From positions 68,427 to 132,426 of the forward strand of contig JAKAUN010000004.1 of assembly GCA_021817605.1 (NCBI GenBank): a DNA stretch of 64,000 nt. Reading direction: 5' to 3'. The translations under genes and the position numbers were made by a program. How positions within the stretch are numbered: position 1 is the stretch's first letter; each line of letters begins with the position of its first letter. The DNA is from Thermoplasmata archaeon. GTDB lineage: Archaea; Thermoplasmatota; Thermoplasmata; Lutacidiplasmatales; UBA184. The notes under the pieces are model-generated. The model saw only the letters and a list, made by a program, of their open reading frames with translations, made no database searches and was not told where the DNA came from. Of the stretch, positions 991-44,284 are shown piece by piece.

Positions 991-1551
991 CTATGGGAGA
1001 GCGGTGGTGGTCACCGTGCCCGAGAACGAACCCTGACCCACTGCGGACACAAAGTCGCCGAGGAGTCCAGTGTTGCCGGCCGTTCCCGTGTTGATGACAA
1101 TCGACTCGCCGGCAGAGACCGGCACGCTCGCGGAGAGCCAGGTGCCCTTGGAGGGTGTGTAGCTCGTTACATTGGTGCCGGCGTTGACCAGCGTTATCTT
1201 AGTGTTAGCCGGAAACGCGATAGACGCCCCGGTCGAGCTCTTCAGGTCGAGCTTGAGATTGCCCGTGTTGATGCCACTTGCCGAGGAGATTCCAAGGGAG
1301 TAGCAGAAGTCAGAGGCCACGCAACCCATGGGGGGGGACGTCGTGCTCGTCGTGTTCAGCGGCGATTCCCACGAGTAGGCCGTTCCCAATGGGGTGTTGC
1401 CGGGTCCCTTCGTTAGGCCCGAGATCAGAACGTACAGCACGGCGGCCAGTACGACCGTGATCGCAACGAGCAGGATCGTGGCGATGATCGGCGAGACTCC
1501 CTTCTTACGGTTCCTTCTCCAGCTTCGGCCAGCTCTCGCGTCGAGGTACAT
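991..1551 (-). CDS. archaeal type IV pilin-like protein (class III signal peptide)
   Basis: N-terminus MYLDARAGRSWRRNRKKGVSPIIATILLVAITVVLAAVLYVLISG matches the prepilin peptidase-type signal plus hydrophobic helix. The remainder is Thr/Ser/Asn/Gly-rich with NxT/S sequons. A GGAGGA motif sits ~8 nt upstream of the ATG. Confidence 0.65.
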   Translation of the reverse strand: MYLDARAGRSWRRNRKKGVSPIIATILLVAITVVLAAVLYVLISGLTKGPGNTPLGTAYSWESPLNTTSTTSPPMGCVASDFCYSLGISSASGINTGNLKLDLKSSTGASIAFPANTKITLVNAGTNVTSYTPSKGTWLSASVPVSAGESIVINTGTAGNTGLLGDFVSAVGQGSFSGTVTTTALP

Positions 1552-1615: not shown

Positions 1616-2006
1616 ACGTTCAGTTCCGTGTGACGTACAAGTGTCGAATCAGTGTTCGTTGAGAGACGTAATACGGATAAATGCGCATTGACACACTTTC
1701 ACGCGCCAAAGCTACGATAGCGGACCGCGGGCTCTGGGACCGCAGGGTGTCGCCCGGCCGGGCGCGTGCGACAACCCCGTGCCCCGCGAGCCAGGCCACG
1801 CGCACGGGCCTACTCGAGCGACCGACGTAAACCATGGTGCCACATCCGCCGGACCCCGATCAGGCATCCCGGACCCAAGTTATACAGAGAACACCCCCGT
1901 TCTTTGATTGTTCGACAAGGTGACTTCGGCGTTCGACACGAGAGGCACGTACCTATAGAACGAAGCAGCCGCAAACTCTCGAAAAAGTGTGATTGCGTTT
2001 AAGTAG

Positions 2007-2534
2007 GTGGAATCTCCATGGACCAAGCTGGCCGTGTTCGACAACGTTCCGACGGGGAAGGAGGCTCGCCCGCGCGAGCCCGAGGCCCCCCGGCGCGATC
2101 CAGAGGAGGCGCGCATCGCCCTGCGGTGTACCCTCAAGGAGCTTCGGCTGGTCGACTCGTTCGTCTCATCGGGCGAGTTCGGTACCCGCTCCGAGCTCAT
2201 GAGGGCGGCGCTGCACGCGTTCCTGCGGTCGCGGACGATGTCCGGCACGACGGCCCCACCGATCGACGCCGAAGGGTTCGTTGAGGTCCCGATTCGGCTG
2301 AAACCGGAGGAGTGTGCGGCGGCGGAGGCGTATGCCCGCCATATCGGAAACCGCCAGGAGTTGCGGGACATCCTGGCACTGATCTTCCGGTACGGCGAAA
2401 AGCAGCTCCAGGTGAAGGAGCTCGCCGAGCGTGCCCGAGAGCACGCTCGCGACGCTGCCGAGACCCGCTCCCAGGTCGGGGCGCTCTCCGAGAGCGCCCG
2501 CGACCTCGAGCGCAAGGGGGTCGTCGGGCGCTAG
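2007..2534 (+). CDS. ribbon-helix-helix (CopG/MetJ-like) DNA-binding protein, hypothetical
   Basis: GTG start. Segment ARIALRCTLKELRLVDSFVSSGEFGTRSELMRAALHAFL has the beta-strand/helix/helix pattern of RHH proteins. The ORF is followed 37 nt later by the FtsZ-like gene. A TGTTCGACAA repeat overlaps codons 10-13. Confidence 0.5.
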   Translation: MESPWTKLAVFDNVPTGKEARPREPEAPRRDPEEARIALRCTLKELRLVDSFVSSGEFGTRSELMRAALHAFLRSRTMSGTTAPPIDAEGFVEVPIRLKPEECAAAEAYARHIGNRQELRDILALIFRYGEKQLQVKELAERAREHARDAAETRSQVGALSESARDLERKGVVGR

Positions 2535-2571
2535 GAACTCGCAACACGCTGGATACGGTCGGGGAGTGGTT

Positions 2572-3486
2572 GTGGGGACCCACGGTGCGCAGCGAGACAC
2601 GGCGGATTGGCTCGAGAACGACCCGTACGTAGAGTACCTTCGGGGCGACCCGGGCGAGGGACTTCGCCTCGGCCAGGAGCTCCGGGTGGTCTTCGTGGCG
2701 GTGGGCGGCGGCGCGATACGCGTCGGCCGCGAGATCGCGCGAGCCCACCTTCGCTACGTCGAGAGCGTGGCCATCAACTGTGACCCCAAGGTCCAGGGAT
2801 TCGAGGATTTCGACCGCAGGGTCTGCCTCAGCCCGGAGTCCGGCGCCGAGGTCGACACCGGTGGCTCGGCGGTCGTCGGAGCGGTCCTCGCCCGCGCGGC
2901 GGAGCCCGCCCTGCGGCGCATCTTCCGTGGCGCAGCCTTCGTTGTCCTCGTGGGGAGCCTGGGCGGCGGCGCGGGAAGCGGCGCCTTCCCTTTCCTCCTC
3001 GATGTCGCCTCCCGCAACGCGGGGGTCGTGAGCGCCTTCGTCATCAAGCCGTTCCGCGCGGAGGGCAACCGCCGCGCCCTCGCCGACCGCGCCCTCGGGA
3101 GCCTCCACCTCCTCGAGGCGTACAACGAGAAGCGAGAGCGCGGCAGCGCGAGCCTCCAGATCCTCGACAACGAGAGCCTCGTCCCGAGCCTCAAGCACAA
3201 GGCGTTCAGCGCGGTCTCCCGACACTGGGCCGACGCCCTCCGCGACCACCTCGAGAACGCGATCCTCGCCCCGGCCGAGGCGATCCTCGGACCGGCGCAG
3301 ATGAGCCATCTCCTCGAGTCGGCGGTCCCTCCGTCCGGTCTTGAGGAGGGTCTCCCCACTCTGGTGCACGGCCCGAGCCCCCCAACCCCCGTGCCCGCGA
3401 TGCCCCCCGCGCTACCGGCGGCGGCCAGCGAGGCGGAGCTCACCTTCGAGGTCGAGGCTGGCGCTCGGCCGCCCGCAGCCTCCTGA
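2572..3486 (+). CDS. divergent short FtsZ/tubulin-superfamily GTPase (FtsZ-like paralogue)
   Basis: Motifs match FtsZ in order. VVFVAVGGGAIRVGREIA corresponds to FtsZ T1 GVGGGGxNA. INCDPKV corresponds to NTDAQAL. VVLVGSLGGGAGSGAFPFLLDVA corresponds to the tubulin signature T4 (GGGTGSG in tubulin, GGGTGTG in FtsZ). VIKPFRAEGNRRALADRALGSL corresponds to the FtsZ TKPFSFEGRRR motif. ILDNESL is T6-like. The C-terminal domain looks truncated and is replaced by a Pro/Ala-rich tail. Start chosen at GTG 2572, 5 nt after GGGGAG. The upstream part of ORF 2431..3486 overlaps the RHH gene. Confidence 0.7.
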   Translation: MGTHGAQRDTADWLENDPYVEYLRGDPGEGLRLGQELRVVFVAVGGGAIRVGREIARAHLRYVESVAINCDPKVQGFEDFDRRVCLSPESGAEVDTGGSAVVGAVLARAAEPALRRIFRGAAFVVLVGSLGGGAGSGAFPFLLDVASRNAGVVSAFVIKPFRAEGNRRALADRALGSLHLLEAYNEKRERGSASLQILDNESLVPSLKHKAFSAVSRHWADALRDHLENAILAPAEAILGPAQMSHLLESAVPPSGLEEGLPTLVHGPSPPTPVPAMPPALPAAASEAELTFEVEAGARPPAAS

Positions 3487-3782
3487 ACCCGACGCGAACC
3501 AGAAGGGCGGAAGGGCCCCCCTCTTCCGCCCCACCCTTGCCTGAGGTCGACCGGGACCCGAGAGAACAGTTCGTGAGGCAAAACGCCGCTCGAGCGAGCG
3601 GCCCTCTGGAGGGGGGTCGAGTCGCTCGACCCAGTGCCAATGGCTGAGACGGCGCGGGTTGTGGATTGCCACCCGAAGTGTCGGTTCCGTCACCTAGCTG
3701 GGCTTCTGCCGGTCTAGCAGGTAGACCCAAGGCCGGGTCGACCGTCCAACTTTAAGAGGGGGACCGCCTCGGTCCTCCCGGC

Positions 3783-3950
3783 ATGGACGGCAGGCTCTTC
3801 ACGGTCCTCGCGCTCCTCGTGCTACCGGCGGTGCTCATCGGCCTCACCGTGCTCTACCTCGGCTCGAACCCGGTTTGGGTCTTCACCCTCATCGGGGTCA
3901 TGGTCCTCGGGGGGATGTACCTCCTGACCTACACCGAGTCGCCCAGCTAG
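3783..3950 (+). CDS. small membrane protein (55 aa, 2 predicted TM helices), hypothetical
   Basis: ATG 3783 gives MDGRLFTVLALLVLPAVLIGLTVLYLGSNPVWVFTLIGVMVLGGMYLLTYTESPS, ending at TAG 3948-3950. A TTTAAGA box lies ~25 nt upstream, consistent with a leaderless transcript. GC3-rich codons. Below the ORF-track length cutoff. Confidence 0.35.
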   Translation: MDGRLFTVLALLVLPAVLIGLTVLYLGSNPVWVFTLIGVMVLGGMYLLTYTESPS

Positions 3951-4008: not shown

Positions 4009-4806
4009 CTAGCCGTACATCCCTGCGGTCGGGGCGGGGCCCTCTTCGACCTCGGGTGCGGCCGGACGGGTCTTCATCGACGTCCGAAGCATCCGCTCGA
4101 TCTGCTCGGCCTGCTTGCGCAGCGGGCCGGTGTCGATCTTGAGCTCGGGCAGGAGCTTGTCGAGCGTCTCGATGAGGGCCGCTCCCGCGCGGTGGTCGGG
4201 GAGCCCCTCGGAGGCGCGGGTGCTCACCAGCAGGACGGCGACAGGGATCTTGCGGCCTATCCCCTGGACGAGGAGGGCACCGGAAACGCCTCCGACGACC
4301 CCTTCCTCGAGAGGCCGGGTCTTGGTCTGCACGAAGGAGTTCACGAGCGCAGCCTCCTTGCGCGAGAAGGCGACCCAGACCTGCTCGCTCGTCTCCTCGT
4401 GCTCGTGGGGCGCCGTCGCGTCCTCCTCCTCTTCACCGAGGGGATGGGGTACGACCCCCTCGAGACAAACGATGAGACGGACGTTCTTCTTCTCGGCGGT
4501 ATCGAGGATGGTGCGGGCGATCGCGTTCGCCTGGGAGGGTGTCGGCGGGAACTCGGAGAGGATGAGGCCGAGGTCGCGTCGGCCGTAGACCCGTATCGTC
4601 GGATGGACCTCGCCGCCCTGAATGACGGCGATCGGGGCGATGTCCGGCGACTCGAAGCGGCCGACCCTCGGCAGCTTGAGCGCCCGGATCATGTAGTGGC
4701 CGGCGACGGTCGTGGCGAGCCCGGCGCTAGGGAAGGAGGAGAGCAGCACGCAGCCCGGTCCGGGGCAGCCTTCGGTCGGAGCCTCGTCACGCCACTGGAA
4801 CTCCAT
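4009..4806 (-). CDS. PAC2-family proteasome assembly chaperone (PbaA/PbaB-like) with C-terminal HbYX motif
   Basis: Start moved to the internal Met (MEFQWRDEAP...) at 4806. PAC2/COG1938-like sequence with the C-terminus ...PTAGMYG, giving hydrophobic-Tyr-X as the last three residues, as in archaeal PbaA/B. A TATA-like box (CGCTATACGC on the minus strand) lies 30-39 nt upstream at 4836-4845. Confidence 0.65.
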   Translation of the reverse strand: MEFQWRDEAPTEGCPGPGCVLLSSFPSAGLATTVAGHYMIRALKLPRVGRFESPDIAPIAVIQGGEVHPTIRVYGRRDLGLILSEFPPTPSQANAIARTILDTAEKKNVRLIVCLEGVVPHPLGEEEEDATAPHEHEETSEQVWVAFSRKEAALVNSFVQTKTRPLEEGVVGGVSGALLVQGIGRKIPVAVLLVSTRASEGLPDHRAGAALIETLDKLLPELKIDTGPLRKQAEQIERMLRTSMKTRPAAPEVEEGPAPTAGMYG

Positions 4807-4835
4807 GGTCGACCCGAGGAGGGGACGCCTCGGGG

Positions 4836-4845
4836 CGTATAGCGA
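4836..4845 (-). promoter_or_regulatory. TATA-like box for leaderless PAC2 gene
   Basis: gcgtatagcg sits in the 4807-4917 divergent intergenic region between the PAC2 and FEN-1 starts. Confidence 0.3.
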
Positions 4846-4926
4846 AGCCGTACGGGCGCCTCTGACGGGAGCTTCCCTCTCCTCTGCCGCGCCAAACCCA
4901 AGTACTCTTCTCCGCTCGTGCGCCTC

Positions 4927-5961
4927 GTGGGGCTCCCCCTGCGGAACATCGTCACCGCCCAGGAGCTCCCCTGGGCCGCGCTCGCGGGCCGCTCGCTTGC
5001 CGTGGACGGCTTCAACGCGGTCTACCAGTTCCTCGCCACGATCCGCCAGCAGGACGGCCAGCTCTTCTGCGACGCCGACGGGCGTGTCACCAGCCACCTC
5101 ATGGGGACGTTCTATCGGACGACCTCGCTCCTTTCCGAGGGCGTTCTCCCGGTCTGGGTCTTCGATGGCAAGCCCCCCGAGCGCAAGGTGGGAACGATCC
5201 GCTCGAGGATCGTAGCGAAGGAGAAGGCGGAGTCCGCCTGGCAGGAGGCCCTGGCCGCGGGCGACCTCGAGACCGCGCGGCGCAAGGCGGCGCAGACCTC
5301 CCGGCTCACCAAGCCGATGGTCGACGAGCTCGAGGTGCTCCTCAAGGCCCTCGGGGTGCCGACCGTCCGCGCCCCGAGCGAGGGGGAGGCCCAGGCGGCG
5401 GCGATGGCGGCTGCCGGAAGCGTCTGGGCTGCCGCCTCGGAGGATTACGACGCGCTCCTCTTCGGCGCTCCGAGGCTCGTCCGTGGCCTTGCCGCCCGCG
5501 GCCGGGGCTCAGCGGGCACGGTCGCCCAGCTCATCGACCGTGCGGCGCTCCTCGAGAGCCTCGGGATCGACGGCGAGGAGCTCATCGTGCTCGGCCTGGT
5601 CGTCGGCACCGACTTCAACGACGGCGTCGCCGGCTTCGGGCCGAAGAAGGCGCTCAAGCTCGTTCAGGAGCATCTCGGCTTCGAAAAAACGCTCGAGAAG
5701 GTCGGGGTCGATCTCGAGGAGGCGCGCAGCGTGGCGGAGATCTTCCGCCACCCGGACGCCCTCGAGGTGGGGAAGCTCGCCTTCGGGCCGGTCGACGAGG
5801 GAGCTCTCAAGGAGCTCCTGGTCGAGACGCACGGCTTCTCCGAGACGCGGGTCAAGGCGGCGGTCGCCCGGGCGCGGTCCCGACCCCGGGCTTCCCCCGA
5901 CCCGGCGGAGAGCCGGGGGCACCAGACGCTCCTCGAGACCTTTGGGGGTCCTCCGGCGTGA
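4927..5961 (+). CDS. fen: flap endonuclease 1 (FEN-1)
   Basis: The N-terminus GLPLRNIVTAQELPWAALAGRSLAVDGFNAVYQFLATIRQQDGQL resembles the canonical FEN-1 N-terminus MGV.L..L. followed by AIDA.N.LYQFL. An XPG-I region and a C-terminal PIP-like tail follow. The ORF track starts at GTG 4918; GTG 4927 gives the canonical MGxxL N-terminus. Confidence 0.9.
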   Translation: MGLPLRNIVTAQELPWAALAGRSLAVDGFNAVYQFLATIRQQDGQLFCDADGRVTSHLMGTFYRTTSLLSEGVLPVWVFDGKPPERKVGTIRSRIVAKEKAESAWQEALAAGDLETARRKAAQTSRLTKPMVDELEVLLKALGVPTVRAPSEGEAQAAAMAAAGSVWAAASEDYDALLFGAPRLVRGLAARGRGSAGTVAQLIDRAALLESLGIDGEELIVLGLVVGTDFNDGVAGFGPKKALKLVQEHLGFEKTLEKVGVDLEEARSVAEIFRHPDALEVGKLAFGPVDEGALKELLVETHGFSETRVKAAVARARSRPRASPDPAESRGHQTLLETFGGPPA

Positions 5962-20943: not shown

Positions 20944-22143
20944 CTACGAGCCGGAAGCGCGGCGCGAGGCCCGTCGTCGCGCCGCGACAAGAAGGGGGAC
21001 GGGGAGGCTCGCCACGGCGACGAGGAAGAGCGGAAGCCCGAGCGACGTCCACGGCACGAAGGCCGTGGTCGCCGGCGGGGCTATAGGCTCGAGCGCCCAG
21101 GTGTCGTTGAAAAGGCCCGGCTCTCCGACCCCGGTCGTCACGAGAAACAGGCGGTCCGTGGGGTCGTAGCCGGCGCCGCCCGCGTATCTCGCGGGGGGCG
21201 CAGGGCCCGTGAGGAGCTTCGTCCAACACGACGTGTTGAGATCGAGCGCCCACGTGTCCGAAAGCACGACGTTGTCGCCGAACCCCCCGAAGAGCAGGAC
21301 GAGGTTCTCTCGGCTGTCGAACCCCTCGAAGGCGTAGTCACGGGCCGGCGGCGAGAAGAGGGGCGAGAGCTCGGACCAGCGGTAGCTCGTCGGGTCGAGC
21401 ACCCAGGTGTCCGCCAAGTGGTGGAACGTGAGCCCGGGCCCGGAGTAGTCATTGCCGCCGAAGAGGACGAGCTCGTGGGCGACGGAGTCGTAGACCATCC
21501 GGCCGTCCGCCCGGGGTCCCGGGGCGGGGCCCGTCACGTGCTGCTGGGTCCAGACACCGAGCCCGGGGTCGAGGGTCCAGAGGTCCCCGAGGTAGCTCGT
21601 CCCCGAGAAGCCACCATAGATGACGACCGTGTTCGTTGTGGGAACGTAGGCGGCCGCCGAGTCCGATCGCGCCGGCGGGCTGTTCACGGTCGGGAGGGGC
21701 GCCCAGGTGTCCGTTGCAAGCGAGAACGTCCAGCTGTCGTCGTAGCGGAAGGGGGTGCCGCTGGCGAAGAGGCCTCATCCTCCGAACAGCACGAACCGCC
21801 CCCAGGAAGCATCGTAGACGAAGGCCGCGTCGGCCCTCGCTGCTGGGGCGACGGAGGGATGGAGCTCGCTCCAGCTCGTGTTCGTGGGGTCGAAGACCCA
21901 CGTCTGGTCGAGCAGGAGGCCGTTCCAGCCGCCGAAGAGGACGAACCGGTTCGCCGCGCTGTCGTAGGCGAGCAGGGTCCCCGCCGCGGCGGGAGGAGCG
22001 ATTCTCCCAGTCTGGTTCACCCGGACCCATGACGGGTGGGGGGCCGGCGGGGGAGTGGCCGCCGCGGGGAGCGCGGGGACCACGACCAGCACCGCGACCG
22101 CAACCAGGACCGCGAGACGCCGCGGAGCGGACCGGTCCGGCAC
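20944..22143 (-). pseudogene. Kelch-repeat cell-surface protein (signal peptide with RR motif, C-terminal TM anchor) interrupted by a single in-frame TGA at 21775-21777
   Basis: ORFs 21775..22227 and 20944..21687 are in the same frame. The read-through translation is continuous Kelch repeats: ...WGRFVLFGG*GLFASGTPFRYDDSWTFSLATDTWAPLPTVNSPPARSD... Start chosen at GTG 22143 (MPDRSAPRRLAVLVAVAVLVVVPALPAAA). A TTCTATAG box lies ~28 nt upstream. Confidence 0.6.
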
Positions 22144-27117: not shown

Positions 27118-27483
27118 ATGCAAGCAGGCGTCACGACGTTCATCGTTTTCGCGGTGGTGGTCGTGGCCTTCGGCGTAGGCTCCCTCGTCATGAATCGGCT
27201 TCTGGGAGCCAAGCGACGCCGCTCCTACCTCCAGGCGACGACCTACGAGTGCGGGGAGGAGGCGGAAGGGGAGGCGCAGATCGACTTCCCGACGCAGCAC
27301 TACACCTTCGCGATCGTCTTCGTCGCGGTCGATGTCATCGGCTTCGTCCTCGCCCTCTGGGCGCTCACCTTCCGCTCGGTGAACTCCGCCGAGTTCCCCG
27401 TCTTCGTCGCCGTCGCGTTCACGGCGCTGGCCGTGGCGGGGATCTACTACGCGCTCAGCGGCGAGAAGAGGTGGGTCGTATGA
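27118..27483 (+). CDS. nuoA: NADH-quinone oxidoreductase subunit A
   Basis: Three TM helices, including the ...YECGEE... motif. Confidence 0.9.
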
Positions 27484-28085
27484 GCGCTCCTCCCGCGCGA
27501 GCCGCTCCTCCGCCCGCCGCCGCAGGCGAGGCCACGGAGCTCCCGTCCCACGAGCCGGGGGTGCCGTTCATAGAGATCGAGACCCTCCGCACCCGGCAGT
27601 TCCTCCCGGCGGCGAAGGAGGCGCTCGGCGATCTCATCGCCGAGAAGGGCCAGTCCTCGCTCATCCGCCCGGTCTTCAACTGGGCCGGTCGCAACTCGCT
27701 CTTCCCGCTCCACTGGGGCCTCGCCTGCTGCGCCATCGAGTTCGCTGCCGGGTTCGGCGCCCGCTGGGACGCGGAACGCTTCGGCGTCGTTCCGCGCTCC
27801 TCGCCGCGCCAGTGCGATCTTCTGATCGTCAACGGCACGGTCACCTGGAAGGTCGCGCACAAGCTCATCACCCTCTACGAGCAGATGCCCGAGCCCAAGT
27901 GGGTCATCGCGATGGGAAACTGCGCGACCGGCGGCGGACCGTTCCGGACCGCCTACTCGGTCGTTCCCGGCGTCGACAAGCTCGTGCCGGTCGACGTCTA
28001 CATCGCCGGCTGCCCGCCGCGGCCCGAGGCGATGCTGGACGGGATCCTTCGGCTCGAGCAGCTCATCCAGGAGCGCAAGGAGTAG
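27480..28085 (+). CDS. nuoB: NADH-quinone oxidoreductase subunit B (20 kDa, N2 cluster)
   Basis: ATG 27480 overlaps the nuoA stop (ATGA). Contains [18 protein letters not shown] and AGCPPRPEA motifs. Confidence 0.9.
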
Positions 28086-28119
28086 CCCGCGCGGCGCGGG
28101 GGGCACGGAGGGGGGGAAC

Positions 28120-28596
28120 GTGGCACCGACCGAAGTTGCGGAGACGCTGGGCGCGCGCCTGGGGAGCCGCCTTCTCGGCGTCGAGCCGTTCCCGGGGACC
28201 GCGGGCCGCGTCCGATTCGACCGGTCCGGTGCGCTCGAGCTGTTCCGCTCGATGCGGGACGACCTCGGCTACCTCCACCTCTCGATGATCGCGGGGATCG
28301 ACTGGGTCGACCACCGCGAGGTCGTCTACGTCCTCTGGTCGGACACGCGGGGCGACTACGCGCTCCTCTCGACCGACCTTCCCGCGAACGACGCCCATGT
28401 CGAGTCGGCTTCGGGGATCTGGCCGAGCGCGAACTGGCACGAGCGCGAGGCGTGGGAGATGGTCGACATCACCTTCGACCACCACCCGGACCTTAGGCAC
28501 CTCCTCATGCCGGAGGGCTACCAGTTCCACCCGCTGCTGCGCTCCTTCAAGCTCCACGAGCCCGAGCAGCTGGAGGTCAAGACGCGCAATGTCTGA
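28120..28596 (+). CDS. nuoC: NADH-quinone oxidoreductase subunit C (30 kDa)
   Basis: NuoC-family sequence (the ERE.WEM. region). Confidence 0.85.
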   Translation: MAPTEVAETLGARLGSRLLGVEPFPGTAGRVRFDRSGALELFRSMRDDLGYLHLSMIAGIDWVDHREVVYVLWSDTRGDYALLSTDLPANDAHVESASGIWPSANWHEREAWEMVDITFDHHPDLRHLLMPEGYQFHPLLRSFKLHEPEQLEVKTRNV

Positions 28597-29734
28597 CATC
28601 TGGATCAACATGGGGCCGCAGCACCCCATGACCCACGGGCTCTGGAACCTGAGGGTGCGCATCGAAGGAGAGCTCATCCGGGATGTCGACCCGGAGGTCG
28701 GCTACCTTCACCGCGGGATCGAGAAGATCAGCGAGGACCGCCACTACAACGAGGTGGTCACGCTGATGGACCGGACCTGCTACGTCGCCGGCCTCTCTTG
28801 GGAGCACCTCTACATGCTCGCCGCCGAGCAGGCGCTTCACATCGACCCGCCGGAGCGCGCGCAGTACCTCCGGGTGCTCTGCGACGAGTTCCAGCGGATC
28901 GGTTCCCACATCATGTGGTACGCCGCCTTCGTCCAGGACATCGGGCTCATGAGCCCGTTCCTCTACGGAATGCGCGACCGCGACCTCGTCCTCGACCTCT
29001 TCCAGAGCTACACCGGCGCCCGCATGACCTACGAGTACATGCGGGTCGGCGGGGTCCGCAACGACCTTCCCCCCGGGTTCACCCACCAGGCGCGCAAGGT
29101 CCTCGACTGGCTGACCGACCGCTTCCACGAGTACGACCAGCTCTGTCTCGGCTCGACGATATTCCACAAGCGCTGCGACAACCTGGGGGTGCTCTCCGGG
29201 AAGGACGCCATCGCCTACGGCGTCACGGGCCCGATGCTCCGGTCGGCCGGGGTCAAGCGCGACCTCCGCAAGGACCGCCCCTACGCCGTCTACGACCGCC
29301 TCGAGTTCGATGTCGCCGTCGCGGACGGGGCGGACGTCACCGGACGCTACCTGGTCCGCATGGAGGAGCTCCGCCAGTCGGTCCGCATCCTTCGCCAGGT
29401 CCTCGACTGGCTCGACCACCACCCCGGGCCGGTGTTGGCCGACCGGGTCCCCCGATGGCTCGGGGCCCCGTATGCGCCGGTGGGGCAGGAGGGCTACCTC
29501 CTCAAGCGCCGGTTCCCCACGGGCGTGGGGTTCTCCTCCGTCGAGGAGCCCCACGGGGAGGCCCAGGCCTACGTCGTCAACCAGGGCGGGGAGCACCCCT
29601 ACCGCGTCAAGTTCCGCTCGCCGGTCTACTCCAACGTCAGCGCCGCACGCCAGTACCTCGTAGGCTACCACGTCGCCGACATCCCGCCGATCATGGGAAG
29701 CGTCGACGTCTGCGTAGGCGAGGTCGACCGCTAG
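28589..29734 (+). CDS. nuoD: NADH-quinone oxidoreductase subunit D (49 kDa)
   Basis: ATG 28589 (MSDIWINMGPQHPMTHG...) overlaps the nuoC stop by 8 nt. NuoC and NuoD are not fused. Confidence 0.9.
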   Translation: MSDIWINMGPQHPMTHGLWNLRVRIEGELIRDVDPEVGYLHRGIEKISEDRHYNEVVTLMDRTCYVAGLSWEHLYMLAAEQALHIDPPERAQYLRVLCDEFQRIGSHIMWYAAFVQDIGLMSPFLYGMRDRDLVLDLFQSYTGARMTYEYMRVGGVRNDLPPGFTHQARKVLDWLTDRFHEYDQLCLGSTIFHKRCDNLGVLSGKDAIAYGVTGPMLRSAGVKRDLRKDRPYAVYDRLEFDVAVADGADVTGRYLVRMEELRQSVRILRQVLDWLDHHPGPVLADRVPRWLGAPYAPVGQEGYLLKRRFPTGVGFSSVEEPHGEAQAYVVNQGGEHPYRVKFRSPVYSNVSAARQYLVGYHVADIPPIMGSVDVCVGEVDR

Positions 29735-29746
29735 GGGGCTGGCACG

Positions 29747-30877
29747 GTGTCGAACGTCACGCTCTACTCGATCTCCTACGACCTCTCGCACGCCGTCGTC
29801 TTCGCGGTCGGCTCGCTCGCCTACGGCTCCTGGCGCGCGGCCATCGACTCGAACGCGGTCGTCACGACGATCGCGGTGCTCGTCTTCGCGGTGATCCTGC
29901 TCGCCGCGAGCATGCTCAACACGATCGTGCTCATCTGGTACGAGCGCAAGCTCCTCGGCCGGTTCATGGACCGCCGGGGGGCGATGCATGTCGGCTACGC
30001 GGGGCTCCTCCAGAACTTCGCGGACGGGCTCAAGCTGTTCCGCAAACACACCTTCGCCCCGCGCGAAGCGGACGACCTCGGATTCTACTTCGGGCCGACC
30101 GCCTACATGGTGAGCTCGATGCTCATCTTCGGCATCCTGCCGATCTCCTCCGGCTGGAACTCGGGGGCCCTTCCGCTGAGCCTCCTCCTCGCCCTGGTGA
30201 TCTTCTCCTTCGCTCCGCTGTTCATCTTCGTCAGCGCCTGGTCGAGCAACAACAAGTACTCCCTGATGGGCGGGATGCGCTCGGCGGCCCAGATGATCGC
30301 CTACGAGGTGCCGTTGCTCCTCGCCGTCGTGGCGGTCGTCCTCGTCGCGGGGAGCTTCGACCTCTCGACCATCGTCTACGAGCAGCAGAACTACTGGTTC
30401 TGGGGGCCGCTCGTCGTCGCGCTCGTGGTCTTCGTGGCGGCGATGCTCGCCGAGATGGAACGGATCCCCTTCGACCTCCCCGAGGCCGAGGCGGAGCTCG
30501 TCGAGGGCTGGAACACCGAGTACGGCGGGATGCTCTTTGCCTTCTTCATGCTCGCCGACTATCTCCGCGCCCTCGTGGGCAGCATCCTGGTCGTCCTGCT
30601 CTTCCTCGGCGGATGGACCCTCCCGACCTGGGTGCCGTCGGCGGCGACCTCCTTCCCTCTCGCGGGGATCTTCTGGTTCATGGTCAAGACCTACATCGTC
30701 TTCGGGCTGTTCGTCTGGGTCCGCGCTTCGCTTCCCCGGGTGCGGACCGACCAGCTGCTCCGCGTGGGATGGAACCGGATGATCCCGCTCGCGCTGCTCT
30801 CCGTCTTCCTCGCCGCGCTCTTGGTCTCGGCGAGATGCCTGCCGGTCTTCGGCTGCGTGCCGTCCCTGGGGGGCTAG
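29747..30877 (+). CDS. nuoH: NADH-quinone oxidoreductase subunit H
   Basis: GTG start. Contains the VLIWYERKLLGRFMDRRG and ADGLKLF motifs. Confidence 0.9.
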   Translation: MSNVTLYSISYDLSHAVVFAVGSLAYGSWRAAIDSNAVVTTIAVLVFAVILLAASMLNTIVLIWYERKLLGRFMDRRGAMHVGYAGLLQNFADGLKLFRKHTFAPREADDLGFYFGPTAYMVSSMLIFGILPISSGWNSGALPLSLLLALVIFSFAPLFIFVSAWSSNNKYSLMGGMRSAAQMIAYEVPLLLAVVAVVLVAGSFDLSTIVYEQQNYWFWGPLVVALVVFVAAMLAEMERIPFDLPEAEAELVEGWNTEYGGMLFAFFMLADYLRALVGSILVVLLFLGGWTLPTWVPSAATSFPLAGIFWFMVKTYIVFGLFVWVRASLPRVRTDQLLRVGWNRMIPLALLSVFLAALLVSARCLPVFGCVPSLGG

Positions 30878-30911
30878 GCGAGAGCGGTCCTGGCGGAGAG
30901 GAGGCGCAACG

Positions 30912-31691
30912 ATGACGGAAGAGCTCACGGCGACCGAGAAACCGAGCGACAACCCGGTTCTCTACGTCGCCCGCCCGATGGCGACGGCGGCGAGACAGTT
31001 CGCCAAGAGCCTCCTGCGCCCCTCCACGATCGTCTACCCGTACGAGAGGCTCGAGGACCCCAAGTTCCGCGAGCAGGTCCAGGTCGCCTCGGGAAAGCCG
31101 ATCGGCGTCGGTGCGGTCTGGGACAACTACCGGGGCGTCCACGCGCTCAACATCGCCACGTGCATCAGCTGCAACCTCTGCGCGTTCTCCTGCCCGGACC
31201 TCTGCATTGAGATGGTGACGGTCCCCGGCGGGGACCCGAAGCACGCGAAGAAGTGCCCTGAGATCGACTACGGCAAGTGCAGCTACTGCGGCTTCTGTTC
31301 CGACGCCTGCCCGGAGGGCTGCCTCACCATGACGACCCGCTACGAGCTCTCGACCCCCAAGCGCTCGGAGATGGTCTACTCGCCGCAGAAGCTCTACGAG
31401 GTCTATCGGACCAAGCTGCCGATGAACCCAATCCGGCTCGAGCGGCCGGCCAACGAGGACTCCATCCTGCTCGACCCGCCGCTGTGCATCGGATGCAACG
31501 CCTGCGCCCGCGATTGCCCGACGCAGTGCATCACGATGCTCGAGATCCCCAAGCCGACCGCCAAGCCGGGGGAGAAGCTCCCCAAGCGCATCTGGAAGGA
31601 GCCGGTCGTCAACGACTCGGACTGCGTGCGCTGCGGGACGTGCGTCAGCGTCTGCCCGAAGGAGTGCCTGTTCTGGGGGAGCCGCAGGTGA
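30912..31691 (+). CDS. nuoI: NADH-quinone oxidoreductase subunit I-like with duplicated ferredoxin domain (four CxxCxxCxxxCP motifs)
   Basis: Motifs CISCNLCAFSCP, CSYCGFCSDACP, CIGCNACARDCP and CVRCGTCVSVCP. At 259 aa it is longer than typical NuoI (2 clusters). Confidence 0.8.
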   Translation: MTEELTATEKPSDNPVLYVARPMATAARQFAKSLLRPSTIVYPYERLEDPKFREQVQVASGKPIGVGAVWDNYRGVHALNIATCISCNLCAFSCPDLCIEMVTVPGGDPKHAKKCPEIDYGKCSYCGFCSDACPEGCLTMTTRYELSTPKRSEMVYSPQKLYEVYRTKLPMNPIRLERPANEDSILLDPPLCIGCNACARDCPTQCITMLEIPKPTAKPGEKLPKRIWKEPVVNDSDCVRCGTCVSVCPKECLFWGSRR

Positions 31692-32176
31692 ACCTCGAGG
31701 AGATCGCCTTCGCGATCCTGGCGCTCGTCGCCGTCGCGACGGCGACGCTCTCGCTGCTCGTGCGCGAGCTCGTCCACACGATCCTCTGGGTCGCGGTGTT
31801 CTTCGTCGACCTTTCGGCGATCTACTTCCTCCTCTACGCGCCGTTCCTCGGCGTCCTCCAGCTCGGCGTCTACGCCGGGGCGGTCACGGTGCTCCTGCTC
31901 TTCGGGATCATGGTGACGAGGAAGCGGATCTTCGCCCGCGAGGCCGCCACCGGCCTGGGGCCGGTGCCTCTCGGGCTCGTTCTCACCGTCTTCATCTTCC
32001 TGGTCGCCGCGCTCGGCGAGCTCCCGCAGGGGCTCGTCGCGCAGAGGAGCTACGCTCCGAGCGATCTCTCCGCCTATCTCTTCGGCCCGGGGGGACCGTG
32101 GCTCCTCCTCCTCGGGCTCGTGATGCTCACGTCGGTCTCGGGAGCGATCTACCTCGTTCGGGAGGGACGCGAGTGA
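31688..32176 (+). CDS. nuoJ: NADH-quinone oxidoreductase subunit J
   Basis: GTG 31688 overlaps the nuoI stop (GTGA). Hydrophobic, NuoJ-like. Confidence 0.8.
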   Translation: MNLEEIAFAILALVAVATATLSLLVRELVHTILWVAVFFVDLSAIYFLLYAPFLGVLQLGVYAGAVTVLLLFGIMVTRKRIFAREAATGLGPVPLGLVLTVFIFLVAALGELPQGLVAQRSYAPSDLSAYLFGPGGPWLLLLGLVMLTSVSGAIYLVREGRE

Positions 32177-32493
32177 GCGGGCTACCCTTCGCCGGGTTTC
32201 TGGTCCTCTCCGGCGCGCTGCTCGCCGTGGGCCTCTTCGGGGTGCTCACACGACGGAACTTCATCCTGCTACTCATCGCCATCGAGATCGCGATGAACGC
32301 GGCGATCCTCAACTTCGTCTACTTCGCCGCCTTTGCCCGAGCGCCGTCGCCCGGCCTCCCCGGCCAGGCAATCGCCGTCGTCCTCATCGGGTTCGCCGCC
32401 ACCGAGGTCGCGGTGGGGCTCGCCATCGTGCTCGCGCTCAACCGCGTCAAGGGGTCGATCAATGTGGCCGAAGCCTCGGAGCTCAAGCTGTAG
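32173..32493 (+). CDS. nuoK: NADH-quinone oxidoreductase subunit K
   Basis: GTG 32173 overlaps the nuoJ stop. Contains ILLLIAIEIAMNAA...EVAVGLAIVLAL. Confidence 0.85.
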   Translation: MSGLPFAGFLVLSGALLAVGLFGVLTRRNFILLLIAIEIAMNAAILNFVYFAAFARAPSPGLPGQAIAVVLIGFAATEVAVGLAIVLALNRVKGSINVAEASELKL

Positions 32494-32634
32494 GGGGCCA
32501 CCGGACTGACGCTCGGACTCGAACCTCTGTTTAGGTGGGCGTTCCTCGTCCCCCTTCTCTACGTCCTCTCCTTCGTCATCGTCGGCCTTGCCGGCCGCCG
32601 CCTTTCCCGCCTCGAGTGGGGCGGGTGGCTCGCG

Positions 32635-34509
32635 GTGGCGTTCGGCGGGGTGGCCATGGTCCTCGGCGTGCTCCTTGGGATCGGCGAGGCCTCCTCGCCC
32701 GGGAGCTACACCAACGTCCAGTTCACCTGGCTCAAGCTCGCGCCCTCGCCCGGCCCGTTCCCCAGCGGCTTCGAGCTCGTCATGGGCACGCTGGTCGACC
32801 CGATCTCCGCGCTCGTCCTCGTGGTCGTCACGGTCGTCGGCTTCCTCGTCCTCCTCTACTCGATCGGCTACATGCACCACGACCGCGGGCTTCCTCGCTA
32901 CTACGCCGAGCTCTCGCTGTTCCTGGCGGCGATGAGCGGCCTCGTGATCTCCAACAACCTGCTGGAGTTCTTCCTGTTCTGGGAGCTGGTCGGGCTCTGT
33001 TCCTACCTGCTCATCGGATTCTACTACGAGAAGCCCTCGGCAGCGAGCGCCGCGAAGGAGGCGTTCCTCGTCACGCGGGTCGGCGACGTGATGTTCCTCC
33101 TCGGGATCTTCCTCTTCTTCTTCGTCTACGCGACCAAGGGCCCCGCGGGCACCGGCGGCTGGGCGGCGAGCGGCTTTGTCTTCGTCCACGGCGCCGCACC
33201 GTTCGTGCCGGTCGGCACCGGCAACGCGACGCTCCTCACCATCGCCGGGATCATGATCCTCGGCGGAGCGGCAGGGAAGAGCGCGCAGTTCCCGCTCCAC
33301 GTCTGGCTGCCGGACGCGATGGAAGGCCCCACCACCGTCTCCGCGCTCATCCACGCCGCGACGATGGTCGCGGCGGGGGTCTACCTGCTCGCGGTGACGA
33401 GCCTGTTCCTCGGGTTCACCGCGCTCGACCAGACGGTCATCGTCGCGATCGGCGGGTTCACCGCCTTCTTCGCCGCGACGATGGCGCTCGTCCACCCGGA
33501 CATCAAGCGCGTGATCGCCTACTCGACGGTGAGCCAGCTCGGCTACATGGTCCTCGCCGTCGGCGCGGGGTTCACGATGGTCGGGCTCTTCCACCTGTTC
33601 ACTCACGCGTTCTTCAAGGCCCTCCTCTTCCTCGCCGCCGGCTCGGTCATCCACGCGGTCGGGACCCAGGACCTGTTCAAGATGGGCGGGCTCCGAAAGA
33701 AGATGCGCCTCACCTCCGCCGCCTTCGCCATCGGCGGCCTCGCTCTCGCCGGGATCCCGCCGTTCGCCGGCTTCTGGAGCAAGGACGACATCCTGAGCTC
33801 GGTCTATTCGACCCTCCCGTCGCATCCAGCGTACTGGCCGGCCTTCCTCCTCGCCTTCGCCGCGGTGTTCCTCACGGCCTACTACATCTTCCGCGCCTGG
33901 TTCCTCGCCTTCTCCGGAGATAAGCCGCGGGACCCGGCGCTCGAGCATGCCCACGAGGGGCCGTGGGTCATGGCCGTCCCGCTCGTCGTGCTGAGCGCCG
34001 TGGCGATCGGCGGGGGGCTGCTCGTCTACCTCCCCGGCTTTGCCGGGCTCCTCCTCCACGGGGGCGGGACTCCCGGGATCCCCCCCACGCTCTCCCCGAC
34101 CGATCTTCTCCTCTCGACGGCGAGCGTCCTTCTCGCCGTCGGAGGGATCCTTCTCGCCTGGAGGCTCTGGGGGAACGGACGGGTCGCTCCCCTCCCGAGC
34201 TCGTCGGCCGTCCGCTCGGTACGCCAGGTGCTGCTGGCCCGCTACGGGATGAAGGCAGCCTACGACTGGATCGGGACGAAAGGGGTCTACACCCTCGCCC
34301 GCGGAGCGGACTTCTTCGACCGGTTCGTCATCGACGGGACCGTCCACGGCTTCGAGCGGACCTTCGGCGGCCTCTCCGACCGCCTTCGGAGGATCCAGAC
34401 CGGCGTGGTCTCCGACTACGCCTCCTACGTGGTCGCCGGGCTCATCGCGGTCTTCGCGCTGATGCTCCTCCTCGCCCCGTACCTCCTGAGCCGCCTCGGA
34501 GGGGCGTAG
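32635..34509 (+). CDS. nuoL: NADH-quinone oxidoreductase subunit L (first canonical start; conserved TM1 extends upstream to ~32506 in frame)
   Basis: Clear NuoL sequence. It lies in the same frame as nuoK, and after the nuoK TAG the frame reads ...LFRWAFLVPLLYVLSFVIVGLAGRRLSRLEWGG..., which aligns with E. coli NuoL residues 4-28. There is no ATG/GTG/TTG until GTG 32635. CTG codons occur at 32506 and 32527. Confidence 0.85.
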   Translation: MAFGGVAMVLGVLLGIGEASSPGSYTNVQFTWLKLAPSPGPFPSGFELVMGTLVDPISALVLVVVTVVGFLVLLYSIGYMHHDRGLPRYYAELSLFLAAMSGLVISNNLLEFFLFWELVGLCSYLLIGFYYEKPSAASAAKEAFLVTRVGDVMFLLGIFLFFFVYATKGPAGTGGWAASGFVFVHGAAPFVPVGTGNATLLTIAGIMILGGAAGKSAQFPLHVWLPDAMEGPTTVSALIHAATMVAAGVYLLAVTSLFLGFTALDQTVIVAIGGFTAFFAATMALVHPDIKRVIAYSTVSQLGYMVLAVGAGFTMVGLFHLFTHAFFKALLFLAAGSVIHAVGTQDLFKMGGLRKKMRLTSAAFAIGGLALAGIPPFAGFWSKDDILSSVYSTLPSHPAYWPAFLLAFAAVFLTAYYIFRAWFLAFSGDKPRDPALEHAHEGPWVMAVPLVVLSAVAIGGGLLVYLPGFAGLLLHGGGTPGIPPTLSPTDLLLSTASVLLAVGGILLAWRLWGNGRVAPLPSSSAVRSVRQVLLARYGMKAAYDWIGTKGVYTLARGADFFDRFVIDGTVHGFERTFGGLSDRLRRIQTGVVSDYASYVVAGLIAVFALMLLLAPYLLSRLGGA

Positions 34510-34515
34510 GCGCCG

Positions 34516-35991: not shown

Positions 35992-35992
35992 G

Positions 35993-43185: not shown

Positions 43186-44284
43186 CGAGGAACCCGTCAC
43201 GGTGAGGGCGGACGCCCTCGCCCCGACCTTGACCCTCGCCAAGGAGATCTACGCGCAGCTCGCCGGTGGGGAGATCCCCCGGATGCGCCTTCCGCTGCGC
43301 ACGAAGCAGAACCTCTCCTTCCATCCGCGCGAGGGGGTCTGGAAGCTCGGCAAGGCGATGGGCACGCGCAGCGCGCGCAAGCTCGACGGGGCGCTCATGC
43401 TGCTGCGGACCTTCTACCTGGTCGACTTCATCAACGAGATGTCCGCCGACAAGAAGACCTCCACGCTCCGCGAGCTCTACTACATCAGCGAGGGATGGGA
43501 CGACGCGAAGTTCCACAGCGAGGACGAGTCGAACCTCCTCATCGAGGACCTCGAGGTCCTCTGCGACCGCCTGCGGGAGGACTTCCGCCTCCATCCGGAG
43601 GAGAACGGCGCCTCGGTCATCGGCGACCTCACCCTCAAGGAGCGCAACCGCAAGGGGATCGTCAAGAAGTTCAACTGCCGCGACGACGTGGGCGACGGGG
43701 GCTACTCGCTCCCGTTCAACGTCGAGAAGGAGAAGATCGAGTTCGTCTCCACGGGAGCGAAGTTCGTCGTCGCCATCGAGTGCGGCGGGATGGTCGATCG
43801 TCTCGCGGAGAACGGCTTTGACGAGAAGTACAACGCGGTCCTCCTGCATCTCAAGGGCCAGCCGGCCCGCTCGACGCGCCGCTTCCTCAAGCGGATGAAC
43901 GAGGAGCTCAAGCTTCCCGTCGTCGTCTTCACCGACGGCGACCCGTGGTCGTTCCGCATCTTCGCGAGCGTCGCCTACGGTGCGATCAAGACCGCGCACC
44001 TCTCGCCGTACCTCGCCACCCCCTCCGCGGAGTTCCTGGGCGTGACCGCCTCCGACATCGAGAACTACGACCTGCCCCACGACAAGCTTTCCGAGCAGGA
44101 CGTGCGCGCCCTCGAGGCGGAGCTCACCGACCCGAGGTTCGGCACGGCGGAGTGGCGCAGCGAGATCGAGCTCATGCTCAAGAACGGCAAGAAGGCCGAG
44201 CAGCAGTCGCTCGCCAAGTACGGCCTCAACTTCGTGACCGACCGCTACCTTCCCGAGAAGCTCGGGGAGATGGGCGCCCTGTAG
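43145..44284 (+). CDS. top6A: DNA topoisomerase VI subunit A (Spo11 homologue)
   Basis: Winged-helix/catalytic-Tyr region and a Toprim domain ([13 protein letters not shown]...[15 protein letters not shown]). 41-nt overlap with top6B. Confidence 0.9.

Follow-up and report, generated by a model that had tools for sequence, protein, structure and literature searches.

A short FtsZ lacking the C-terminal subdomain is linked to genes for a CdrS-like ribbon-helix-helix protein and a small membrane protein in Candidatus Lutacidiplasmatales

INTRODUCTION

In Euryarchaeota the small ribbon-helix-helix (RHH) gene cdrS shares a transcript with ftsZ2, and cell division requires it (PMC7439475). In Haloferax the open reading frames (ORFs) of cdrS and ftsZ2 lie 3 nt apart, and CdrS, a regulator with global reach, recognises a symmetric motif (PMC8406309). 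It has also been reported that ftsZ2 'frequently' neighbours 'parD', and that the C-terminal GID motif of archaeal FtsZ binds SepF (PMC8178401). Here we describe a comparable gene arrangement in a 64,000-nt stretch of the genome of a Thermoplasmata archaeon (GTDB order Lutacidiplasmatales, UBA184; assembly GCA_021817605.1, contig JAKAUN010000004.1, forward-strand positions 68,427 to 132,426). We refer to this whole stretch as the window and give all positions in its own numbering. Three co-oriented genes encode, in this order, an RHH protein, a short FtsZ that we call FtsZL, and TM55, a 55-residue membrane protein. An initial annotation, made from the DNA letters alone, had recognised the first two genes as a cassette and likened them to the TubR-TubZ and ParR-ParM partition systems and to the FtsZl1 family. 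It overlooked the third conserved gene as well as a conserved C-terminal peptide of FtsZL, and did not consider the cdrS-ftsZ2 precedent.

The T7 'synergy' loop of FtsZ resides in the C-terminal half of the protein and triggers GTP hydrolysis in the next subunit of the polymer. To our knowledge, every FtsZ/tubulin polymer characterised so far depends on both halves of the fold, and none lacks the C-terminal subdomain. Proteins that act through a single interface can cap or sequester FtsZ, as is the case for plant ARC3, SulA, MciZ and bottom-face mutants of FtsZ itself. The divergent FtsZl1 family is missing T6-H7, carries a coiled coil and a C-terminal domain of its own, and is encoded in operons with vWA, OmpA and GTPase genes (PMC2875224).

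Ca. Lutacidiplasmatales, or TMEG, is a soil lineage with genomes of ~69% GC and ~2.1 Mb (PMC9287336); the terms FtsZ, SepF and CdvB were not found in the supplements of that study. Thermoplasmata as a whole vary widely in FtsZ, SepF and ESCRT, and some lineages are without SepF/PRC or without FtsZ altogether (PMC11188069). Our full-text searches on FtsZ-superfamily surveys, Thermoplasmatota division and C-terminally truncated FtsZ turned up no description of the FtsZL family, and a family-wide phylogeny of 2023 does not mention it (PMC9871819).

RESULTS

FtsZL retains only the nucleotide-binding half of FtsZ

The three genes and the conserved peptide are as follows.

2034..2534, plus strand: CdrS-like RHH protein, 166 aa (the alternative GTG at 2007 gives 175 aa, 2007..2534)
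2572..3486, plus strand: FtsZL, short FtsZ, 304 aa, GTG start (Pfam, NCBIfam, structure matches, alignments and structure model); N-terminal extension, residues 1-31; GTPase domain with T1-T6, 32-211; helix H7, 212-250; Pro/Ala linker, 251-286; C-terminal peptide, 287-301
3430..3474, plus strand: conserved C-terminal peptide of FtsZL, EAELTFEVEAGARPP (order and wider-family alignments)
3783..3950, plus strand: TM55, two-transmembrane protein, 55 aa; order consensus MDGR..(TM1)..SNP..(TM2)..G.fYLlsYtesF

FtsZL belongs to the FtsZ superfamily, as had been proposed. PF00091 matches it above the curated cutoff of 33 bits (45.7 bits, E = 1.2e-11) at residues 39-168 only, and solved FtsZ structures match at E ~1e-11, likewise over the N-domain only (residues 41-178). 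It is not a canonical FtsZ, which also agrees with the initial annotation: TIGR00065 reaches 60.9 bits, where its cutoff is 295.2, and aligns only at positions 18-160 of the 353 in the model, and PF12327, the FtsZ C-terminal subdomain, gives no match at E <= 1. Nor is it a CetZ, since neither CetZ nor TubZ nor tubulin matches it at E <= 10 in a search against the sequences of solved structures. PhuZ is the sole non-FtsZ family matched in that search, and weakly; by sequence and fold FtsZL is nearer to FtsZ than to TubZ or PhuZ.

In an AlphaFold2 (AF2) model built with 30 homologues, residues 32-250 fold as a Rossmann-like GTPase domain followed by one long helix, H7, with a predicted local distance difference test score (pLDDT) above 85 over most of the core, while residues 1-31 and 251-304 are disordered. 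All the nucleotide loops are present (T1 AVGGGA, T2 NCD, T3 DTGGS..VG, T4 GGGAGSG and T6 LDNE, the last with L198, D199 and N200), and so is the PF.(A/C)EG.RR motif (KPFRAEGNRR). The motifs quoted in the initial annotation are thus in place, save that the T1 loop, given there as GVGGG, reads AVGGGA. In the alignments G45, G46, G131, G132 and G135 are invariant across the FtsZL family, and N200 is among the conserved GTP-binding residues. The T7 loop (NxDxxD) was not found in the alignments of either the order or the wider family. At the site just past H7 where T7 of FtsZ begins, the whole family has an invariant Glu236 and the order an invariant Pro234; this could be a vestigial or an alternative catalytic element. 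Substitutions in the T4 loop occur in some distant members, namely P0128 and P0133 (at loci L089 and L087) and L096, which read SLGGETGSS, SLGGEAGTE and APSGGASGSE, a pattern that hints at relaxed nucleotide binding in these lineages.

The short length of FtsZL is genuine. Alignments with 30 homologues begin at its first residue (MGT[HY].A.R), so the start at 2572 is correct; these N-termini, together with an identical 304-aa protein in a public protein set (P0001), rule out a longer in-frame ORF from 2431 as the gene. We likewise reject the possibility of a frameshift, a split gene or a fragment of a longer FtsZ, the last of which the initial annotation had named as a way in which it could be wrong: no homologue is full-length, the exact protein is public, and none of the reading frames of the window encodes an FtsZ C-domain. 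Nor does the window hold another, full-length FtsZ. A search of 90% protein clusters with FtsZL gave 365 significant matches. Among the 120 matches listed, all of them family members, PF00091 is the only Pfam domain, PF12327 is found on none, and lengths run from 267 to 311 aa, mostly 302-311. An exhaustive search of representatives returned 17 clusters (50% identity) at E <= 1e-30, the full-length ones of 302-321 aa; beyond these, scores drop to ~82 bits and below, and the matches are to ordinary full-length FtsZ through the N-domain only. FtsZL is a compact family, set apart from other FtsZ by this score gap.

As the initial annotation had it, a Pro/Ala-rich tail stands in place of the C-terminal domain. 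What it had missed is that the tail, after a linker of variable sequence, ends in a conserved peptide, acidic and strand-like, with the consensus E[AV]ELTFEV..(A)RPP. In the order alignment E289, L290 and E293 do not vary, and the last of these is invariant across the wider family too. In canonical FtsZ a linker and a terminal docking peptide reach membrane anchors, and FtsZL has the same layout; by analogy with the tails of FtsZ, TubZ and PhuZ, the peptide may be a docking motif.

A cdrS-like RHH gene directly precedes FtsZL

A scan of GTDB species genomes matched 113 loci, of which we retained the best 80, each from a different assembly. All but two of the 80 are labelled Thermoplasmata (or Thermoplasmatales) archaeon, the exceptions being labelled 'bacterium' and 'Methanobacteriota archaeon'; the matched loci include UBA184 and the AcS/SubAcS metagenome-assembled genomes that define Ca. 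Lutacidiplasmatales. An RHH gene lies directly upstream of FtsZL in 79 of the 80 loci, the remaining locus beginning 22 nt upstream of the FtsZ-like match, and in all distant relatives examined, which bears out the earlier assignment of the upstream gene as an RHH gene and a conserved neighbour. In the window the RHH stop lies 37 nt upstream of the FtsZL start, as had been noted. A Shine-Dalgarno-like sequence read ahead of that start supports a bicistronic RHH-FtsZL arrangement, and in the distant loci L086 and L092 the two genes are 1 nt apart and overlap by 23 nt, respectively.

2561..2569, plus strand: Shine-Dalgarno-like GGGGAGTGG

We take the RHH gene to start at GTG 2034, likely the true start, since most gene callers and most homologues use the equivalent position (166 aa) and since the DNA of 2007-2033, which follows a TATA-like box, is conserved while the protein sequence it would encode is not. 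The protein has its first RHH unit at residues ~27-66, may contain a degenerate second unit of beta-alpha-alpha type, and finishes with a long helix whose end reads DLERKGVVGR (conserved motif DLER(K/Q)G). An AF2 model of the single sequence, of low confidence (pLDDT 52), predicts beta-alpha-alpha, linker, beta-alpha-alpha and long helix. A tandem-RHH architecture was considered and not adopted: the two units align in register in hhalign at a probability of only 6.7%, and such a tandem is at best possible.

The RHH protein has 362 homologues in our search, and JGI annotates members of the family as Arc/MetJ-type RHH regulators. Taken alone, the window protein stays below threshold (RHH_1, PF01402, E = 0.39; CdrS, its top NCBIfam match, E = 0.0012 and 18.7 bits). 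When 16 family members were scanned against NCBIfam and Pfam, PF01402 matched 15 (best E = 3e-4) and the model of haloarchaeal CdrS, NF058555, matched all 16 (best E = 4.3e-7), more than any other NCBIfam family. ParD-type antitoxin models match 15 of the 16 and VapB 6, and RHH_8 and NikA-like models match too.

Conserved boxes lie on the promoter elements of the RHH gene

We compared the promoters through an ungapped alignment of 71 orthologous upstream regions and k-mer counts over 78 loci. The following elements were located in the window.

1878..1885, plus strand: distal TATA-like box AGTTATAC, order consensus GGTTATAC, ~25 nt before box A, near -153
1909..1918, plus strand: box A TGTTCGACAA with the core TGT-TCG-ACA, at ~-125 relative to the RHH start
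1930..1944, plus strand: box B CGTTCGACACGAGAG (consensus in the order TGTTCGACACGTCAG), lying 21 nt past box A and 105-106 nt ahead of box C
1997..2005, plus strand: proximal TATA-like box GTTTAAGTA, centred ~33 nt before GTG 2034 (~-37 to -29)
2034..2044, plus strand: box C GTGTTCGACAA, overlapping the RHH start codon

The core of the boxes is a 9-bp dyad, TGT-N3-ACA. Box C is a near-invariant 11-mer present in ~76 of the 78 loci, while the encoded N-terminus otherwise varies; box B stands at -103/-104 in nearly all 78, with variable flanks; and box A (GTTCGAC) is found in many or most Lutacidiplasmatales loci and is lost in the deepest branches. The spacings are constant to within 1 nt (A-B 21 bp, B-C 105-106 bp, i.e. 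about two and ten helical turns), while the sequence between the boxes varies. Of the TATA-like boxes, the distal one (GTTATAC) keeps a fixed position in 75 of 78 loci and is a possible second promoter; the proximal one, with the column consensus GTTTAAGTA, is found as its reverse complement TACTTAAA in 70 of 78. Given the usual distance between an archaeal TATA box and the transcription start site (TSS), transcripts from the proximal promoter, with its box at 1997-2005, should have a very short 5' leader or none. The initial annotation had described a 455-nt AT-rich leader carrying repeats. The repeats are real, and across loci they stand out far more strongly than in one sequence; the region is not uniformly AT-rich, its GC content ranging from 0.48 to 0.75, and the predicted 5' leader is close to nil. 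Neither in these 455 nt nor in the 296-nt spacer downstream of FtsZL did we find an Rfam match at E <= 1 or a tRNA.

The sequence GTTCGACA occurs three times in the upstream region (1910, 1931 and 2036), in each case on the RHH start or no farther than 135 bp upstream from it. The window as a whole holds six copies against 1.41 expected, a number reached in 0 of 100 shuffles. The three copies outside the cassette all lie within coding DNA, and we rejected a regulon built on further sites in the window. The distant clade of L092 and L086 has a variant that differs by one base, TGTCCGACA; two copies of it, separated by 24 nt, stand between a TTTAAATA (TATA) box and the start codon.

Boxes at or just past the TSS occupy the classical position of an archaeal repressor. 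Because there are only two or three of them, placed on promoter elements, an operator fits better than a centromere array. On the simplest reading of this layout the RHH protein would regulate its own expression through the boxes, possibly with looping or cooperative binding.

A gene for a two-transmembrane protein follows FtsZL

TM55 is composed of two hydrophobic helices with a conserved SNP turn between them, a conserved MDGR N-terminus and a conserved YLLSYTESF C-terminus; it has no Pfam family. Its ORF directly follows FtsZL in 78 of the 80 loci, and also in L086, L089 and L092. A box of the form cTTTAAGAG / TTATGAG stands at the same distance before TM55 in ~80 loci, distant L086 included. 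Because it has this conserved TATA-like box of its own, TM55 appears to be a separate, probably leaderless transcription unit.

3751..3758, plus strand: TATA-like box TTTAAGAG, ~25-32 nt before the TM55 ATG

The spacer between FtsZL and TM55 (3487-3782) measures 296 nt in the window as compared to a median of ~88 nt in ~80 loci, and two other loci have comparable spacers (328 and 373 nt). Within the additional ~200 nt lie a GC hairpin of 11 bp (~3505-3531) and, on the minus strand, a terminator-like site (3602..3585). A conserved terminator hairpin after the FtsZL stop was considered and discarded: across 84 loci, stems of at least 7 bp numbered 41 versus 38 in the coding control, and the single fold gave z = -1.24.

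The genes stay together in distant lineages and are inherited vertically

The trio is single-copy per genome in at least 80 Lutacidiplasmatales species. Within the order the wider neighbourhood (PAC2, FEN1, FTCD) is syntenic too, so linkage within the order is weak evidence and the distant members are decisive. P0131 (32% identity, L086) and P0130 (35%, L092) lie in a different neighbourhood, with NDK-Sua5-M24 peptidase genes upstream and other genes downstream. The upstream genes also differ for P0128 (34%, L089), where only downstream genes are shared; the 1.5-kb contig of P0133 (31%, L087) shows the upstream RHH ORF only. In L086, L089 and L092 an RHH gene (152-168 aa) is followed by FtsZL and then by a 56-aa ORF, and the three proteins align across lineages.

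Across loci, FtsZL identities to the window protein correlate with those of FEN1, FTCD and PAC2 (Spearman rho 0.66-0.75) and with those of the RHH protein (rho 0.77). That FtsZL diverges in step with its housekeeping neighbours indicates vertical inheritance. No copy of the cassette was found on viral contigs (a plasmid collection was not searched). We rejected a mobile-element origin on the grounds that there is no viral contig match and that the surroundings are syntenic housekeeping genes. The rest of the window is housekeeping in content (complex I, topoisomerase VI, succinyl-CoA ligase, aEF-1beta and others); with the eIF-2B-family genes these mark it as core chromosome, so the earlier statement that the cassette is chromosomal, between a pilin gene and PAC2, stands. 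The window holds no other division gene.

A second, small clade of short FtsZ proteins has nine members, P0161 among them, with lengths of 227-305 aa (290-305 in seven); they carry PF00091 only and come from contigs of 45-48% GC.

L095, 5480-7124: second short-FtsZ clade locus
L096, 548-2129: second short-FtsZ clade locus
L088: second short-FtsZ clade locus

In L095 and L096, the two longer contigs examined, a 157-162-aa RHH protein is encoded upstream, and a 63-66-aa two-transmembrane protein downstream on the opposite, convergent strand. The tails of this clade are without the ELTFEV motif. Homology between TM55 and the 63-66-aa protein was considered and rejected, none being detectable. The FtsZ C-domain may have been lost twice, or its loss may be older than the order.

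Other genes in the window

The genes around the cassette and elsewhere in the window include the following.

991-1551, minus strand: archaeal type IV pilin gene (Pilin_N)
4009-5097, minus strand: PAC2 ORF, 362 aa, overlapping the FEN1 start (4918)
20944-21687, minus strand: Kelch-repeat beta-propeller protein (PF24681, E = 5e-36), containing a chance GTTCGACA site at 21315
27118-37588: complex I (nuo-type) operon
41161-44284: topoisomerase VI B and A genes
57868-58713: CARDB-domain protein, following the 1695-aa ORF
58683-63770, minus strand: ORF of 1695 aa carrying CarboxypepD_reg, SdrD_B and Ig-like repeats; its N-terminus matches the AglB core domain weakly, below the cutoff

The pilin region is the least conserved part of the neighbourhood, and relatives carry one or two pilins of 186-791 aa. 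Identical contigs call PAC2 as 265 aa (4009-4806), and the long 362-aa form is probably a high-GC artefact. The 1695-aa ORF probably encodes a large surface protein. A CDC48 gene lies ~1 kb downstream of a second-clade cassette (L095, 7841-10027), and the cassette in the window adjoins PAC2. In Haloferax, sites bound by CdrS lie upstream of three proteasome genes, cdc48d, panA and psmB (PMC8406309); the parallel with the PAC2/CDC48 adjacency may be coincidence.

DISCUSSION

We read the three genes as a vertically inherited, autoregulated and remodelled cell-division module of the cdrS-ftsZ2 type in Ca. Lutacidiplasmatales, and put the probability of this reading at roughly 0.45. The CdrS-like RHH protein would bind the TGT-YCG-ACA boxes in its own promoter region and would thereby autoregulate the bicistronic RHH-FtsZL transcript, in the simplest case through a block to RNA polymerase from box C at the start codon and presumed TSS. 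FtsZL is predicted to bind GTP via its retained T1-T6 loops. Having no T7 ('bottom') face, it could neither stimulate hydrolysis by a neighbour nor extend a canonical protofilament. Most likely it would use its nucleotide ('top') face to join or cap a partner polymer (of full-length FtsZ, should the genome encode it) or some other assembly, and would be docked by its tail peptide, plausibly at the membrane, where TM55 is the leading candidate for its partner. The capping step is less certain than the division-module reading as a whole.

Several points weigh against this reading. Every RHH and CdrS score is far below its curated cutoff (~19-30 bits versus 100 bits for NF058555, the CdrS equivalog model), RHH domains are short and promiscuous, and the second-clade RHH proteins match aCcr1, CdrS and the NikR N-terminus equally, at 1e-5 to 1e-6. 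Orthology of FtsZL to FtsZ2 is putative, and the sequences it matches best are FtsZ proteins of bacteria, probably owing to composition. The alignment consensus of the FtsZL tail does not contain the SepF-binding GID motif of archaea. TM55 is separately promoted and exposes only few cytoplasmic residues, and the two-transmembrane protein of the second clade has no detectable similarity to it. The T4 changes (GGE.G) in some distant members mean that GTP binding is perhaps not universal, while the invariant Glu236 may leave room for a residual catalytic element acting in trans. Finally, the capping idea requires a full-length FtsZ partner in the genome.

Among the alternatives, all of which we consider unlikely, the one that survives best is a conditional division inhibitor resembling a toxin-antitoxin (TA) module. 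Here the RHH protein would repress the operon and may neutralise FtsZL via its C-terminal helix, and the half-FtsZ, once freed, would poison FtsZ polymerisation by capping filament ends, in a manner comparable to SulA, MciZ, plant ARC3 or engineered bottom-face mutants of FtsZ. The succession of RHH gene, effector gene and an operator on the module's own promoter is the classical type II TA order, and the ParD and VapB matches of the RHH family fit it. From FtsZ structure, a protein with only the nucleotide face looks like a filament capper, a point for which Oliva et al. 2004 and Du et al. 2018 are reportedly the sources. However, TA modules are patchy, mobile and often multicopy, whereas the present module is single-copy and syntenic and co-diverges across the order and beyond. 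The conserved TM55 and the docking-type tail point to a structural, localised role, and an inhibitor, too, needs a full-length FtsZ as its target.

Next in order, and already rather improbable, comes a self-sufficient minimal polymer, in which the tail peptide, perhaps with Glu236, would replace the contacts of the C-terminal subdomain while TM55 tethers the polymer to the membrane. The tails of PhuZ and TubZ contribute to longitudinal contacts, and PhuZ is the only non-FtsZ family among the structure matches of FtsZL. The FtsZL tail is strongly conserved across 31-100% identity, Glu236 is invariant precisely where T7 begins, and the division machinery of Thermoplasmata is unusually plastic (PMC11188069). 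Yet the catalytic NxDxxD motif is absent, AF2 gives the tail no ordered contact, the short FtsZ proteins of the second clade have different tails, and no known tubulin-family polymer does without the C-terminal subdomain.

A bolder proposal, which we regard as improbable, is that a half-tubulin has replaced FtsZ2 or every full-length FtsZ both in Lutacidiplasmatales and in a second, less GC-rich archaeal clade. It would form a GTP-dependent, membrane-tethered division structure with the tail and Glu236 substituting for the C-terminal subdomain, TM55 as the anchor and the RHH protein as the autoregulator. Since Thermoplasmata vary in their FtsZ, SepF and ESCRT content, a lineage relying on a half-FtsZ alone is conceivable. 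If true, this would be the first natural tubulin-superfamily cytomotive or scaffolding polymer made from the nucleotide-binding half alone.

Just as improbable is a chromosomally encoded machine for DNA segregation that works on the principle of TubZRC, ParMRC or SegAB, with the RHH protein as a centromere adaptor on the boxes, an FtsZL polymer moving the DNA and the tail contacting the adaptor. ParR, ParG, omega and SegB are all RHH adaptors, SegB uses few sites upstream of segAB, and the tail of TubZ contacts TubR. The locus resembles such systems in that an adaptor gene precedes an NTPase gene, with ORFs that sometimes overlap, in the helical phasing of its repeated upstream boxes (21 bp and ~105 bp) and in its conserved acidic tail past a flexible linker; one second-clade RHH protein also matches ParR weakly (E = 0.026). 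Partition of the TubR-TubZ/ParR-ParM kind, to which the initial annotation had likened the cassette, is not supported as the leading reading: the two or three boxes sit operator-like at TATA-proximal and TSS positions, no further ones occur in the non-coding DNA of the window, and the module is chromosomal, single-copy, vertically inherited and not on viral contigs. Moreover, FtsZL is without the C-terminal subdomain that characterised cytomotive polymers use, those of TubZ and PhuZ included, it is closer to FtsZ than to these two, and the RHH protein resembles CdrS, a transcription factor.

Least probable of all is a relic N-domain reused as a non-polymerising GTP-binding switch or sensor with no cytoskeletal role, which would suit the loss of the polymerisation half and the T4 substitutions of distant members, suggestive of non-uniform constraint on nucleotide chemistry, but sits poorly with the high conservation of T1-T6 within the order, with a linker, docking peptide and linked membrane protein that mirror the tethering architecture of FtsZ, and with linkage to a CdrS-like regulator, which points to division.

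As a division module of the cdrS-ftsZ2 type, the locus would extend that paradigm past haloarchaea and methanogens to uncultured soil Thermoplasmatota. It offers a sharply defined cis-element, the TGT-YCG-ACA boxes with their fixed phasing. The GTP-binding half of FtsZ, kept under strong purifying selection across an archaeal order, amounts to a natural experiment on the N-domain alone, be it to cap, to regulate or to polymerise anew. While not categorically new on present evidence, the system should appeal both to archaeal cell biologists and to those who study FtsZ and tubulin.

Comparison with known systems

Of the single-interface FtsZ inhibitors, SulA and MciZ have no homology to FtsZL and ARC3 is a eukaryotic chimera; none is encoded in an RHH operon, and capping by FtsZL is itself only a proposed activity. 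FtsZl1 (Makarova & Koonin 2010) is likewise a divergent FtsZ with no recognisable FtsZ C-terminal domain, encoded near membrane-protein genes. FtsZL differs in keeping T6 (LDNE) and H7 and in having no folded C-terminus, and its gene neighbours are RHH, TM55, PAC2 and FEN1, with no vWA gene; membership in FtsZl1, which the initial annotation had entertained, is therefore ruled out by comparison with the family description. With TubZ-TubR-tubC and PhuZ the locus shares a DNA-binding-protein gene before a gene for a tubulin-superfamily GTPase, upstream repeats and a tail after a flexible linker. Those systems, however, reside on plasmids and phages, TubR is a winged-helix protein that binds iteron arrays, and TubZ and PhuZ retain the C-terminal subdomain.

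Canonical FtsZ has in common with FtsZL the N-terminal GTPase fold with T1-T6, the PF..EG..RR motif, H7, and a disordered linker ending in a conserved C-terminal peptide. FtsZL is set apart by having neither T7 nor PF12327, by a tail that reads ELTFEV and follows neither the GID nor the bacterial motif, and by a TIGR00065 score of one fifth of the cutoff.

The closest known system is cdrS-ftsZ2 of Halobacterium salinarum and Haloferax volcanii. There, as here, a small RHH gene lies immediately upstream of the FtsZ gene on the chromosome, co-oriented and almost certainly co-transcribed with it, and the CdrS model matches, at scores below its cutoff, all 16 RHH proteins scanned. The differences lie in each component. 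CdrS has ~60 aa, whereas the RHH protein described here has 166, with a possible additional beta-alpha-alpha-like unit and a long helix; FtsZ2 is full-length, with a C-terminal domain and a GID tail, whereas FtsZL has neither. The Halobacterium operon is under the control of CdrL, with no autoregulation by CdrS reported, while in Lutacidiplasmatales the boxes lie on the promoter of the RHH gene itself, and a linked gene for a 55-aa membrane protein is added to the pair.

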